The notes under the pieces: model-generated
The model's database searches: none
The model's input: only the letters and a program-made list of their open reading frames with translations
Told to the model about the DNA's origin: nothing
Assembly (NCBI GenBank): GCA_038850285.1
Contig: JAWCMA010000019.1
Span: forward strand, 1 to 22,583
Length of the DNA: 22,583 nt
Source: Methanocellales archaeon
Lineage (GTDB): Archaea > Halobacteriota > JAWCLZ01
Direction: 5' to 3'
Shown here: positions 4,286-12,447 of the stretch, piece by piece
Layout: each line of letters starts with the position of its first letter
Position numbering within the stretch: the first letter of the stretch is position 1
Translations under genes and position numbers: made by a program

Positions 4286-5471
4286 ATGTATGGAATGTGG
4301 CACTGAATATCCCCATACAGATGTAATTTATACCTGCGGCAGCTGCGGAGGATTGCTTGATGTAATCTATGATTACTCCCAAATTGAATTCAAAATAGAC
4401 AATAGCCCCCTTAGTGTTTGGAAATATCGCGCTTTACTCCCAATTGAAAGAGAACCCATTACATTGAAAGAGGGGGGAACTCCTCTTTATAAATGCGATC
4501 GCTTGGCTAAGGAAATTGGAATAAAAGAGCTTTATGTAAAACACGAGGGAATGAATCCAACTGGGTCTTTCAAAGATCGAGGCATGACAGTTGGGGTAAC
4601 TAAAGCGCTTGAAATGGGAATGCCGACAGTAGCCTGCGCTTCAACCGGTAATACCTCTGCATCCCTCGCTATATATGCAGCTAAAGCAGGTATACCTGCT
4701 GTTGTACTGCTTCCAAGCGGGAAAGTGGCACTTGGAAAAGTTGCTCAAGCACTAATGCACGGTGCAAAGGTGATAACCATAAAGGGCAACTTCGATAGAG
4801 CACTCCGCTTAGTGCGCGACCTATGTCGAGAGCAGCGCTTTTATCTGCTGAATAGCGTTAATCCATTCAGACTGGAGGGACAGAAAACAATTGGCTTTGA
4901 AATGGCAGATCAACTAGGATTAAGAGCACCTGATCGAGTGATACTTCCAGTGGGAAATGCAGGCAATATCTCTGCAGTTTACAAAGGCTTCAAGGAATTG
5001 AAGCTCTATGGCTTAATCTCAAAATTGCCTAAAATGATTGGAATTCAAGCTGAGGGGGCTAGTCCCATTGTTAAAGCAATTAAAAGCGGTGCTAGAGAAA
5101 TTGAAAGGGAATCAAAGCCTGATACAATTGCCACTGCAATTAGAATAGGCGATCCAGTTAATGCTCCTAAGGCATTAAAAGCGATTCGCGAATCAAAAGG
5201 CACAGCTGAAACAGTTACCGATGATGAAATTACCAAAGCCCAGAAAGACCTCGCTAGACTAGAGGGAATAGGCGTTGAACCCGCAAGTGCTGCGGCTATC
5301 GCTGGACTTCGAAAGCTGGTAAACCTAGGGGTTATAGATTATGATGAATGCATCATATGCGTTGCAACCGGTCACTTATTGAAAGATCCTGAAACAGTGA
5401 TAAAGATATGCGGCAGGCTAATTGAAGTAGAGGCAAATATGGATGCAGTTAAAAAAGCGCTTGAGGCTTGA
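4269..5471 (+). CDS. thrC: Threonine synthase (PLP-dependent, N-terminal Zn ribbon)
   Basis: CxxC...CxxC N-terminus, PLP lysine in NPTGSFKDRG, ASTGNTSAS, PVGNAGN, EPASAA and TGHLLKD. The start could be ATG 4275; the gene overlaps the alaS stop. Confidence 0.96.
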   Translation: MRMFLRCMECGTEYPHTDVIYTCGSCGGLLDVIYDYSQIEFKIDNSPLSVWKYRALLPIEREPITLKEGGTPLYKCDRLAKEIGIKELYVKHEGMNPTGSFKDRGMTVGVTKALEMGMPTVACASTGNTSASLAIYAAKAGIPAVVLLPSGKVALGKVAQALMHGAKVITIKGNFDRALRLVRDLCREQRFYLLNSVNPFRLEGQKTIGFEMADQLGLRAPDRVILPVGNAGNISAVYKGFKELKLYGLISKLPKMIGIQAEGASPIVKAIKSGAREIERESKPDTIATAIRIGDPVNAPKALKAIRESKGTAETVTDDEITKAQKDLARLEGIGVEPASAAAIAGLRKLVNLGVIDYDECIICVATGHLLKDPETVIKICGRLIEVEANMDAVKKALEA

Positions 5472-9147: not shown

Positions 9148-9312
9148 GTAATCCTTAAATTGCTTATTTCTCTTACTTTATATACTTCTTGTTCAAATTA
9201 GCACTTAGGCAGGTAGGACGGAGGATTTAATCGGTAATAAACAAAAGTGCATGATTTCCGAGCAAAAAAGATTCACCATAAGCTGAGGAGAGAAGAAATT
9301 TCTTGGGATTAG

Positions 9313-9468
9313 CTAGGCATTGAGCTCTAGGAGCTGTTTGCTTACCAGCGTGTAATGTTTGTTGGGCTTAACGCTTTTCAAGCGGTGGCTTTGATAGGAA
9401 TGCTCGTCAAATTTTTCATAGGAAGCAAATACCTTGCCGCACATTGCACATTTAATTCTCTTCCTCAT
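9313..9468 (-). CDS. 51-aa C2H2 zinc-finger microprotein (not in ORF track)
   Basis: MRKRIKCAMCGKVFASYEKFDEHSYQSHRLKSVKPNKHYTLVSKQLLELNA has C-x2-C-x3-F-x8-H-x4-H. RBS GAGGTGA lies 6 nt before the ATG. Confidence 0.85.
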   Translation of the reverse strand: MRKRIKCAMCGKVFASYEKFDEHSYQSHRLKSVKPNKHYTLVSKQLLELNA

Positions 9469-9491
9469 TTTATTTCACCTCTTTTTTATTA

Positions 9492-9594
9492 TGCGACTTG
9501 GCTCTATACTTTAAGGAGGTTAAGGGGGCTGAAAAATTTTCAAAAAATTTTTCGATAGGGAGGAGCCTTCCTTAAATCTGTATGCCAAGTCGCA
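9492..9594 (-). other. Bulge-helix-bulge hairpin enclosing a putative 74-nt intron (9504-9577) in an mRNA leader
   Basis: Minus strand: outer 11-bp helix TGCGACTTGGC/GCCAAGTCGCA, central 4-bp ATAC/GTAT, two 3-nt AGA bulges each 3' of the central helix, inner helix TTTAAGG/CCTTAAA and apical GAAAAATTT/AAATTTTTC. Confidence 0.75.
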
Positions 9595-9720
9595 GTTCTT
9601 AATTGAATTTAAATGCAACTGCACCAAATCCATCCCCTCCTAGACCCACCCCTTTATTTCCACTGGAAGGTTTCTTCATTTTTTTCATTCAATTTTTTTC
9701 AAAATAACATGATCATTTCT

Positions 9721-9738
9721 TATATATAAAGTTTTCTA
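9721..9738 (-). promoter_or_regulatory. BRE/TATA promoter for the BHB leader and C2H2 transcript
   Basis: Minus strand reads AGAAAAC TTTATATATA; transcription start predicted near 9700. Confidence 0.6.
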
Positions 9739-9879: not shown

Positions 9880-10308
9880 TTATAAAATTCTCAATAGTTG
9901 AATATCGAAGGTCAAGTCTTTCCCGGCTAATGGATGATTGGCATCTAATGTAATAGTCGACTCAGTAACCTCCACCACATATACAAAAGCTATGCTGCCA
10001 TTCGCTTGGCGAATTTGTAACCTCTGGCCTTTTCTTGGTTGAAAGTATAGAGGAAGTTTGCCCCTCTCAACTGTTAATATCAATTCCTTGCGATATGGCC
10101 CATATGCTTCAGCTGCAGGTATTTTAATGGTTTTGGTTTCACCCTCATTCATTCCAATTACAGCTTGTTCAAAGCTCGGGATCAGCTGCTCCTCACCTAT
10201 TGTGAACTGCAAAGGCTCCCGGGAAGCAGAGGTATCAAATACAGTACCATCATCCAGTTTACCTGTATAGTGAACGAGTACAGTATCACCATTTTTCGCC
10301 TGCACCAT
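9880..10308 (-). CDS. FKBP-type peptidyl-prolyl cis-trans isomerase (SlyD-like, insert-in-flap, no His-rich tail)
   Basis: VLVHYTGKLDDGTVFDTS, IP.FE.A..GM, AEAYG and LDANHPLAGKDLTFDI; RBS AGGAGG. Confidence 0.95.
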   Translation of the reverse strand: MVQAKNGDTVLVHYTGKLDDGTVFDTSASREPLQFTIGEEQLIPSFEQAVIGMNEGETKTIKIPAAEAYGPYRKELILTVERGKLPLYFQPRKGQRLQIRQANGSIAFVYVVEVTESTITLDANHPLAGKDLTFDIQLLRIL

Positions 10309-10875: not shown

Positions 10876-11034
10876 ATGGCATTTAGAGGTTTTTCAGGAC
10901 CGAGAGAGATGTACAAAGTTATATGCGCAGATTGCCATGTGGAAACAGAAGTTCCATTCAAGCCTGATGGCAATAGACCCGTTTACTGCAGAGAATGCTA
11001 TCAGAAACATAGAAAATCAAGAAGGAGATTCTAG
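10876..11034 (+). CDS. 52-aa CxxC-x17-CxxC domain zinc-binding microprotein (not in ORF track)
   Basis: MAFRGFSGPREMYKVICADCHVETEVPFKPDGNRPVYCRECYQKHRKSRRRF has the family signature C..C.....VPF.P...RPVYC..C; RBS AGGTGA. Confidence 0.93.
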   Translation: MAFRGFSGPREMYKVICADCHVETEVPFKPDGNRPVYCRECYQKHRKSRRRF

Positions 11035-11103: not shown

Positions 11104-12066
11104 GTGGAGCTGTTGACAAGGGAAGTTGAAAGAGCAAAATACAAGCTGGAAGAGGAAGATAAATTAATATGCTCTGAGTGTGGCAGTAGATTGCTTATTC
11201 ACGATTATGAAAGAGCAGAACTAGTATGCTCCAACTGCGGCTTGGTTATCGACGAGGCTTTTATCGATCTAGGCCGTGAATGGCGAGCTTTCGATCACGA
11301 CCAAAGAATGAGGCGCTCAAGAGTAGGCGCTCCCATGACCTACACCATTCACGATAAAGGTTTATCTACAACTATTGACTGGAGAAATCGCGATGCCCAT
11401 GGCAAGCCGATTTCCCCTAAATATCGAGCGCAGCTCTATCGCTTGAGGAAGTGGCAGAGAAGAATAAGAGTGAGCAATGCCACAGATCGCAATCTTGCTT
11501 TTGCACTCTCTGAAATCGATAGAATAGCAAGCGCACTTGGACTCCCGAGAAATATTAGGGAGAACGCTGCCATCATTTATCGCAAAGCAGTGGATAGAAA
11601 TCTCATTAGAGGTAGAAGTATAGAGGGAGTTGCAGCTGGGGCGCTGTATGCATCCTGCAGACAGAGCAATGTACCCAGAACGCTTGATGAAATAGCACAG
11701 GTTTCTAGGGTAAGCAGAAAAGAAGTCGGCAGAACATATAGATTCATCTCAAGGGAGCTTGCACTTATGCTCGTGCCAACTTCACCCATAGATTATATCC
11801 CTAGATTTTGCTCAGGCTTGAATTTAAGAGGCGAGGTACAATCCAAGGCAGCTGAGATCATTAGACAAGCCGCGGCAAAAGAGTTAACAAGCGGTAGAGG
11901 CCCAACTGGTTTAGCAGCGGCCGCGATCTACATCTCCACAATTCTATGTGGAGAGCGCAGGACTCAGCGAGAGGTGGCAGAGATAGCTGGGGTTACTGAG
12001 GTTACCATTCGCAATCGCTATAAAGAACTCGCGGAAGAGCTTGATATTGAAATTGTAATTCAATAA
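11104..12066 (+). CDS. tfb: Transcription initiation factor IIB
   Basis: Zn ribbon CSEC...CSNC, EWRAF, RSRVGAP, HDKGLST, two cyclin repeats ([34 protein letters not shown]). TTG 11113 with an AGGTGG RBS is a plausible alternative start. Confidence 0.98.
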
Positions 12067-12310
12067 GCAAGATTACAAATAGGCCGGGCAAGAGGTTAAC
12101 CGCCACAACCTTTCAAATATTTCTGCTCTAAGGAGATCTTGCCGAGAAATCAAGCGAATTTTCGCTAGAGAATCGCCTAACACAGCATATATAATTTGCT
12201 TCCTTCACCCAAATTGCCTTCAGCAACTTTTTTTATGCAACGCATAGCGACATTGATTAATCTAATCTTTAATTAATTATTAACATATAAAGGTACAAAA
12301 AAGCACAATA

Positions 12311-12396
12311 CGGGCCGGAAGGGATTTGAACCCCTGACCAATGGGTTTCTCCACTTGCTAAGAGCCCATCGCTCTACCTGACTAAGCCACCGGCCC
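12311..12396 (-). tRNA. tRNA-Lys(CTT) with 12-nt intron at 37/38 (12347-12358)
   Basis: GGGCCGG/CCGGCCC acceptor stem, ATGGG/CCCAT anticodon stem, loop CT-CTT-A-[GCAAGTGGAGAA]-A, T arm AGGGG-TTCAAAT-CCCTT, discriminator G; CCA not encoded. Confidence 0.96.
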
Positions 12397-12447
12397 ATTT
12401 CTGAGGTAGGAATATATATCACATCCTTGCTATATATGTTGCGATTG

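Follow-up and report, generated by a model that had tools for sequence, protein, structure and literature searches.

A candidate EndA-spliced intron with a canonical bulge-helix-bulge motif in the predicted leader of a small zinc-finger gene of a Methanocellales archaeon

Two introns of archaeal messenger RNAs (mRNAs) come closest to the element that is described here. [quoted passage not shown] According to PMC7714728 this was the only known case before a BHB intron was described in the 5' untranslated region (UTR) of the Haloferax volcanii gene HVO_1309, on the basis of the sequencing of circular RNAs (circRNA-seq) and in-vitro cleavage by EndA (Schwarz et al. 2020, PMC7714728). The subject of our analysis is a canonical BHB motif on the minus strand of a 22,583-nt stretch of DNA from a Methanocellales archaeon (contig JAWCMA010000019.1, positions 1 to 22,583; the window), where it is found in the predicted leader of a gene for a 51-aa C2H2 zinc-finger protein. 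The element is probably, judged by its sequence, a new case of the same, very rare kind. The specific reading that we favour, with moderate confidence, is that of a 5'-leader intron spliced by EndA and RtcB, of which the excised and probably circular RNA is the selected product.

The likeness to HVO_1309 concerns the position of the BHB in an mRNA leader (predicted for the window), the membership of the same phylum (Genome Taxonomy Database) and an EndA of the homodimer type (for the window, in its relatives); the insert is excised as a circle there and proposed to be so here, and for the HVO_1309 intron, too, no function is given in PMC7714728. The two differ, as far as HVO_1309 is described in PMC7714728, in intron size (46 nt there, 74 nt in the window) and in host (an M24 peptidase there, the 51-aa C2H2 protein here); the core of the window intron is moreover demonstrably under selection and C-rich. 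HVO_1309 has the support of circRNA-seq and in-vitro cleavage, whereas the window element is a prediction from sequence. The initial annotation had presented the locus as a candidate for an undescribed system, which goes too far because a BHB intron in a 5' UTR had been published for HVO_1309. In the case of cbf5, as described in the sources cited, the coding sequence is split by the intron, and the lineages that have it possess a hetero-oligomeric EndA of broad specificity, whereas the window intron is predicted in a leader and belongs to a lineage with an alpha2 EndA.

Read on the minus strand from 9594 to 9492, the motif has the layout TGCGACTTGGC-ATAC-AGA-TTTAAGGA ... TCCTTAAA-GTAT-AGA-GCCAAGTCGCA, i.e. 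an outer helix (h) of 11 bp, a 3-nt bulge, a central helix (H) of 4 bp, a 3-nt bulge and an inner helix (h') of 8 bp, with all 23 pairs of the Watson-Crick type. Each bulge sits 3' of the 4-bp helix on this strand, as in the strict hBHBh' form, and the strand is the one that also carries the TATA-like box, the Shine-Dalgarno (SD) sequence and the open reading frame (ORF) of the C2H2 gene. The initial annotation had likewise called the motif canonical, with purine bulges 3' of the central helix on the correct strand; its lengths for the outer and central helices stand, and its 7 bp for the inner helix become 8. The parts of the motif and of the insert are as follows.

9584..9594, minus strand: 5' strand of the outer helix, TGCGACTTGGC, within the 5' exon; compensatory change at two pairs, and three G.U changes, across relatives
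9580..9583, minus strand: 5' strand of the central 4-bp helix, ATAC, invariant in all four genomes
9577..9579, minus strand: 5' bulge AGA, with the predicted cut between 9578 and 9577; always 3 nt long, with varying letters
9569..9576, minus strand: 5' strand of the inner helix, TTTAAGGA, paired with TCCTTAAA at 9510..9517
9510..9517, minus strand: 3' strand of the inner helix (8 bp), TCCTTAAA
9506..9509, minus strand: 3' strand of the central helix, GTAT, invariant in all four genomes
9503..9505, minus strand: 3' bulge AGA, with the predicted cut between 9504 and 9503
9492..9502, minus strand: 3' strand of the outer helix, GCCAAGTCGCA, part of the 3' exon
9504..9577, minus strand: predicted intron of 74 nt and candidate circular RNA, from the rule of a cut after the second bulge nucleotide
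9558..9565, minus strand: C-rich tract CTCCTCCC of the insert, predicted unpaired in the circular fold
9515..9528, minus strand: C-rich tract CCCCCTTAACCTCC of the insert, predicted unpaired in the circular fold
9531..9553, minus strand: A/U hairpin of the insert, with T6 and T5 runs (T7 in relatives G001 and G002, T4 and T5 in relative G003)

Folded in isolation, the 116-nt stretch with the motif reaches -35.3 kcal/mol (z = -5.76), and none of 200 shuffled sequences folds equally well. Both ARAGORN and Rfam (at gathering) agree with the earlier statement that no tRNA or rRNA is present at the motif, and no Rfam family was found at the locus or the insert even with E-values up to 10. The cut rule recovers the intron that ARAGORN calls in tRNA-Gly(CCC) of the same genome (position 38, 16 nt). 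This is the one tRNA of the genome with a clean BHB and the only control of the rule; when the remaining introns called by ARAGORN were scanned with relaxed BHB settings, most gave no clean motif. Applied to the window, it yields the borders that had been proposed before (9504-9577), with a predicted exon junction ..GGCAUACAG|AGCCAAGUC.. and a predicted circle junction ..AAAGUAUAG|AUUUAAGG... The predicted spliced leader contains a hairpin of 11 bp with a 7-nt loop, 10 nt 5' of the SD sequence GAGGTGA, which reproduces the product first suggested for it. The intron ends (at 9504) 36 nt 5' of the ATG (9468), so that the ORF is the same with and without splicing.

The genome that holds the window (G000) is a metagenome-assembled genome of 1.28 Mb in 39 contigs, with 41% GC and a completeness of 93%. 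A loose BHB scan of both its strands returned 4261 matches, among which the window motif ranked first. Specificity for the geometry was controlled by applying a single scoring scheme to 27 geometries (bulges of 2-4 nt, central helix of 3-5 bp). Three intergenic matches of the canonical 3-4-3 type score at least 45 (56 for the window locus, then 50 and 47), and the intergenic matches of 25 of the 26 decoy geometries score 43 or lower; the decoy 3-3-3 re-finds the loci with scores 50 and 47 only, by register slippage.

In a DNA search of 40 relatives, the locus was recovered only in three other members of the same family (G001, G002 and G003). Together with G000 these make up the class, and a covariance model built from the four matches one locus in each, and the same four genomes when it is run on a 151-genome sample of the phylum; a pattern scan of public genome contigs likewise returned only the three known relatives, and the seven loci from a pattern scan of metagenomes were all unrelated, GC-rich chance matches. 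The initial annotation had put forward a covariance model of homologous leaders as a check on the geometry, and the exact 3-4-3 arrangement is indeed retained in all four genomes, with intron lengths of 74, 75, 75 and 73 nt. The 5' bulge reads AGA, AAA, ACA or AAT and the 3' bulge AGA in three genomes and AAA in G003. In the latter genome, the outer helix is altered at four of its 11 pairs: A-U is replaced by G-C and U-A by C-G, a third pair is G.U and the fourth a C-A mismatch. G002 has two G.U pairs. Summed over the helices there are two double changes of the compensatory type, both in the outer helix, next to four changes to G.U and a single mismatch, and the RNAalifold consensus retains the BHB. 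Over 23 pairs in four sequences, the minus-strand reading comprises 87 Watson-Crick pairs, four G.U pairs and one mismatch, and the plus-strand reading 87, one and four, respectively; the G.U type of the substitutions thus identifies the minus strand as the RNA strand.

Metagenomic contigs provide further variants of the locus, from sequencing runs labelled as hot-springs and sediment metagenomes. The BHB helices are unchanged in a contig of run X5, which has 24 differences and three gaps over ~530 nt, and contigs of runs X4 and X5 carry a change at 9539 that creates a U.G pair in the inner A/U hairpin. Among the contigs covering the locus (four DNA runs), none was without the insert and none showed a joint. 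Two short contigs, of runs X1 (366 nt) and X4 (156 nt), match only 9497-9535/45, i.e. the 3' part of the insert and the start of the outer helix. Over these 39-49 nt they have 5-7 differences, and beyond them the similarity ends; a more distant relative or a sister cassette may be their source.

Conservation by segment was expressed as the identity to G002, G001 and G003, respectively (a one-base error in the borders of the 3' segments has a negligible effect on the percentages).

Intron core: 94%, 98% and 74%
G-rich leader: 92%, 94% and 76%
Third codon positions of the C2H2 ORF: 82%, 73% and 51%
Variable 5' leader: 56%, 50% and 47%
Spacer and SD: 65%, 70% and 22%

Both the intron core and the G-rich leader are more conserved than the third codon positions of the ORF. 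Because the core exceeds these positions in identity, the insert is not a neutral spacer, and on this comparison the intron core is under purifying selection.

With respect to the enzymes, RtcB is encoded in G000 itself (PF01139, E = 9.6e-181, C10:9244-10542), and each of the three relatives encodes EndA in a single ORF (357-409 aa) that combines two PF01974 domains, which is the homodimeric alpha2 architecture. According to PMC6379350, efficient processing of relaxed motifs is confined to the (alpha-beta)2 and epsilon2 enzymes; given these enzyme ranges, the strict BHB form is what the EndA of an alpha2-type lineage needs.

Under the reading of a spliced leader intron, the transcript would start ~25 nt below the TATA-like box at 9730 and span the G-rich leader, the hBHBh' motif and the 51-aa ORF. 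Cleavage by the homodimeric alpha2-type EndA would follow the second nucleotide in either bulge (9578|9577 and 9504|9503), upon which RtcB would join the exons to give the hairpin of 11 bp and 7-nt loop 10 nt before the SD sequence, and would circularise the 74-nt intron as well. When the 74-nt RNA is folded as a circle, CUCCUCCCUAUC and CAGCCCCCUUAACC are predicted to be mostly unpaired, so the stable circle would display its C-rich tracts, and the mRNA leader would be its host, by analogy with tRNA-Trp introns as hosts of C/D-box RNAs. The predicted accessibility of SD and AUG (ViennaRNA, unspliced/spliced) is 0.90/0.91, 0.53/0.53, 0.77/0.77 and 0.70/0.71 in the four orthologues, and we rejected an unmasking of the ribosome binding site (RBS) by splicing on account of these unchanged values. 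It is because the intron core is selected and splicing is not predicted to alter ribosome access that we take the excised RNA as the selected product. Stable or functional circular introns excised at a BHB are described for the tRNA-Trp intron with its C/D-box small RNA (sRNA) and for the metazoan tRNA intronic circular RNAs (tricRNAs) (PMC12558985, PMC4536317). In these sources the host is a tRNA and the cargo a box C/D guide, whereas the host proposed here is an mRNA leader, and no RUGAUGA/CUGA box pair was seen by eye in 9504-9577.

The surroundings of the motif, from the putative promoter to the likely terminator, comprise the following features.

9723..9730, minus strand: TATA-like box TTTATATA, read from the sequence; identical in G002 and kept in G001
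about 9605..9670, minus strand: G-rich, non-coding leader segment (AAAGGGGTGGGTCTAGGAGGGGATGGATTTGGTGCAGTT...), conserved among relatives
9475..9481, minus strand: SD sequence GAGGTGA of the C2H2 gene, with the core GGTG kept in all four orthologues
9313..9468, minus strand: ORF for the 51-aa C2H2 zinc finger (C-X2-C-X12-H-X4-H), with a weak Pfam match to zf-C2H2_4 (E = 0.0035); presumed cargo of the 3' exon
9264..9269, minus strand: T6 run 3' of the ORF, which would be a likely archaeal termination signal
G000 C17:5233-5370, plus strand: C2H2 paralogue with 59% identity; leader at about 5145-5232 with the hairpin TTGCAA C GCCC ..12 nt.. GGGC CTC TTGCAA

The promoter segment is identical to that of G002 (45/45) and nearly so to that of G001 (40/45); from the TATA-like box only, we infer a transcript start near 9700, ~25 nt below it. 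Upstream of it, T-runs come after the end of the FKBP gene at 9880. Small ORFs were rejected as the content of the leader: a 1-nt deletion shifts the frame in G002, and in G003 the possible ATG is replaced by ATA. The C2H2 ORF itself is identical to that of G003 at 97 of 102 first and second codon positions and at 26 of 51 third positions. Its product is restricted to the lineage (4 of 401 sampled genomes of the phylum in a protein search) and is represented by two clusters in an index of 5.8 billion proteins, where P0002 is a more distant orthologue. Paralogues with 57-59% identity are encoded in G000, G001 and G003. The three paralogue leaders that were read (in G000, G001:C20 and G003:C20) have no canonical BHB and share another conserved hairpin, TTGCAA-N-GCCC...GGGC-CNC-TTGCAA; hence the insert is specific to one paralogue lineage, in which it is ancestral to the class.

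Two neighbouring genes may be mentioned in addition. A second tiny zinc-finger gene near the C2H2 gene is a 52-aa treble-clef ORF (PF23477, E = 3e-20; 10876-11034, plus strand) directly upstream of the TFB gene (11104-12066). An 88-nt tRNA (12310-12397, minus strand; Rfam 59 bits) is called Lys(CTT) by ARAGORN in default mode, whereas the intron mode makes it Ser(AGA) and gives it an intron of 12 nt; it is probably a tRNA-Lys(CUU) with a mini-intron, the anticodon loop reading, by eye, CTCTTA and then an insert of ~12 nt.

The other two canonical BHB loci of the genome (E2 and E3) and two hairpins with C-rich loops are listed here for comparison with the window element.

C1:126664-126749 (locus L049:265-350), plus strand: E2, second canonical BHB, GTAGGGCTC TGGT AAG TGCAAA ... 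TTTGCA ACCA ATA GAGCCCTGC
C2:104072-104154 (locus L048:273-355), minus strand: E3, third canonical BHB, GGAGAC CGCG AGA CTCGCCTTGCA ... TGTAGGGCGAG CGCG AAG GTCTTT
C1:94335-94377 (locus L059), plus strand: E4, C-rich-loop hairpin without BHB, with CCUCC twice, the promoter-like box TTTAATAT and a T-run
C3:45941-45995 (locus L060), plus strand: C-rich-loop hairpin without BHB, with CCCUCC and CACCUCC in the loop

Like the insert of the window, those of E2 (61 nt, with UCACCUCCUU) and E3 (64 nt, with CCCCCUUAA and CCCCCUU) are intergenic, G-poor and C-rich, and they are less well conserved. E2 has a TTTAATAT box 23 nt before the outer helix. It was found in three genomes, G003 being the one without a match, and is canonical in one of these, the last H pair being G-A in both G001 and G002. 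E3 lies between convergent genes, is followed by a T-run and has the canonical register in three of four genomes, G003 keeping the hairpin and not the register. The hairpin of E4 is conserved in four genomes with a compensatory change from A-U to G-C, and has AACCTCCTTAAA in common with the window insert.

When 1089 start regions were compared with 1089 internal ORF controls, a preference of the C-rich sequences for start regions was present for E3 (p = 6e-12) and E4 (p = 5e-5). From their sequences, E4 and C3:45941-45995 look like anti-RBS sRNAs. The Methanosarcina mazei sRNA154 and sRNA41 are described as masking ribosome binding sites with C-rich or anti-RBS tracts (PMC5867862), and E2 (UCACCUCCUU), E3 and E4 (CCUCC twice) look like these; in that description the M. 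mazei RNAs are linear, intergenic and without a BHB, and the window insert, in distinction from them, is negative for start-region preference.

Taken together, the sequences suggest that BHB cassettes may serve this class for the circularisation of some of its small RNAs. The wider proposal, that the BHB is a general cassette for circular small RNAs in this hot-spring class, with three intergenic loci wrapping conserved, G-poor and C-rich inserts and the C2H2 leader as one host among several, is tentative. If true, the circles of 74, 61 and 64 nt would be regulators resistant to exonucleases and heat, some of them anti-RBS (UCACCUCCUU, CCCCCUUAA); the placement of the E2 promoter would make its transcript little more than the cassette, and the whole would parallel, in a prokaryote, the way in which circles of the tricRNA type are made, with trans-acting regulators as the product. 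The BHB circles reported in a circRNA survey from 2025 are, as far as its account goes, confined to introns of rRNA and tRNA (PMC12558985), and in the open-access literature (full-text search) no description of BHB-flanked, C-rich small RNAs was found.

Several other explanations can account for part of these observations. The most serious is that of a structured hairpin that is never spliced, a cis element with a C-rich loop that acts in the leader (in protein or sRNA binding, or in stability) and has the BHB register by chance. The genome does contain promoter-driven hairpins with C-rich loops and without BHB (C1:94335-94377 and C3:45941-45995), the register is lost in other BHB-like elements (canonical in one of three genomes for E2, three of four for E3), and none of the five runs with the locus is of RNA. 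Yet the window element has kept its register in four of four genomes despite the differences at four of 11 outer-helix pairs in G003, the decoy geometries yield no comparable intergenic hairpin, and purine bulges of constant length and varying letters suit a ruler-type enzyme rather than a sequence-specific binder; we regard this explanation as rather unlikely. A lower probability still is given to a processed BHB cassette that is not a 5'-UTR intron, i.e. an independent small-RNA gene next to a C2H2 gene with its own proximal promoter, or a cassette from which an EndA cut separates the G-rich RNA without productive ligation. E2, with its TATA box TTTAATAT and no conserved downstream gene, suggests that stand-alone cassettes exist, and AAAGTATAGAG in the 3' half of the window element is weakly TATA-like. 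On the other hand, the distance from hairpin to ATG is just 23 nt, with no T-run between BHB and ORF, the nearest good TATA box lies ~130 nt upstream of the hairpin, and in front of the paralogue at C17:5233-5370 there is likewise a long conserved leader, whose G-rich 5' motif is homologous (GAAATAAGGGTGG, which resembles that of the window leader). A DNA-level element (a miniature inverted-repeat transposable element (MITE), another dispersed repeat or a palindromic operator) would fit the inverted repeat, which is long and lies in AT-rich intergenic DNA. The arms of the repeat differ by two offset 3-nt indels, the substitutions that make G.U pairs are A-C mismatches on the other strand and in terms of duplex symmetry, and no metagenome contig is without the insert. 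Dispersed copies, which the initial annotation had named as the mark of a MITE, were not found: BLAST shows one copy in G000 (next-best matches of 14-63 nt with E of at least 0.006), and the covariance model has one locus in each of the four genomes. Such an element is very improbable.

The splicing of HAC1/XBP1 is non-spliceosomal as well: Ire1 cuts at twin stem-loops, an RtcB-type ligase joins the exons in metazoa, and the intron lies in the coding region, changes the frame and is stress-regulated. Neither the twin stem-loops of Ire1, nor a coding-region intron with a change of frame, nor stress regulation is seen at the window. The initial annotation had drawn this parallel, and a regulated splicing that switches the expression of the zinc-finger regulator does not fit well with an intron outside the ORF, which leaves the ORF unchanged, and with the unaltered SD/AUG accessibility predicted in the four orthologues. 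EndA is in addition constitutive tRNA machinery, and no sensor is evident. For a regulatory role speak the drop of HVO_1309 mRNA upon EndA knock-down in Haloferax, as described in PMC7714728, and a possible pairing in cis of GGAGGGG in the leader with CUCCUCC in the intron, which is kept in G003 (GGAGGAG/UUCCUCC, with wobble changes only). A specific pairing between G-rich leaders and C-rich RNAs was rejected, as shuffled C-rich RNAs do about as well (shuffled sRNAs match the complementarity of E3 to the leader in 24, 6, 67 and 212 of 300 trials) and base composition explains it. We consider regulated splicing improbable, although less so than a DNA element.

Returning to the spliced leader intron with its circular product, a number of observations weigh against it. 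The covariation is statistically weak, as it comes from four sequences only and the observed score is reached by 64 of 500 column shuffles; H and h' are invariant and therefore uninformative either way, and the outer helix has a C-A mismatch in G003. The five sequencing runs listed for the locus are all of DNA, none of RNA. PF01974, i.e. EndA, was not found in G000 with its completeness of 93%; the ORFs that flank EndA in G001 (contig C24, locus L034, 706-1788) are also without a match in G000, so that the absence of EndA would most simply be an assembly gap. The genome likewise has no assembled 16S gene, its sole GGATCACCTCC match not being rRNA, and absences in it are not to be taken as real. 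The intron contains T5-T7 runs, at which an archaeal polymerase could stop without reaching the 3' half, and GTATAG in that half could be read as the weak TATA box of a proximal promoter, the start site being deduced from the distal box. The C-rich tracts of the insert do not favour start regions over internal controls (E1a, p = 0.98; E1b, p = 0.09), on which grounds an anti-RBS or anti-SD character of the insert was rejected. A convincing target for the circle was found neither in leader pairing nor in start-region preference.

In the sources consulted (PMC7714728, PMC6379350), cbf5 and HVO_1309 are the only EndA substrates beyond tRNA and rRNA, and the window element would be the third. If true, the splicing of archaeal mRNAs by protein enzymes would not be a one-off, and it would extend to an uncultured class of thermophilic, methanogen-related archaea. 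The visible selection on the intron and the two sister cassettes in the same genome add to its value as a third substrate. It would also provide a small and strictly canonical substrate for asking what the role of such introns is, be it the production of circles, the remodelling of the leader or the coupling of the expression of a regulator to the capacity for tRNA splicing.

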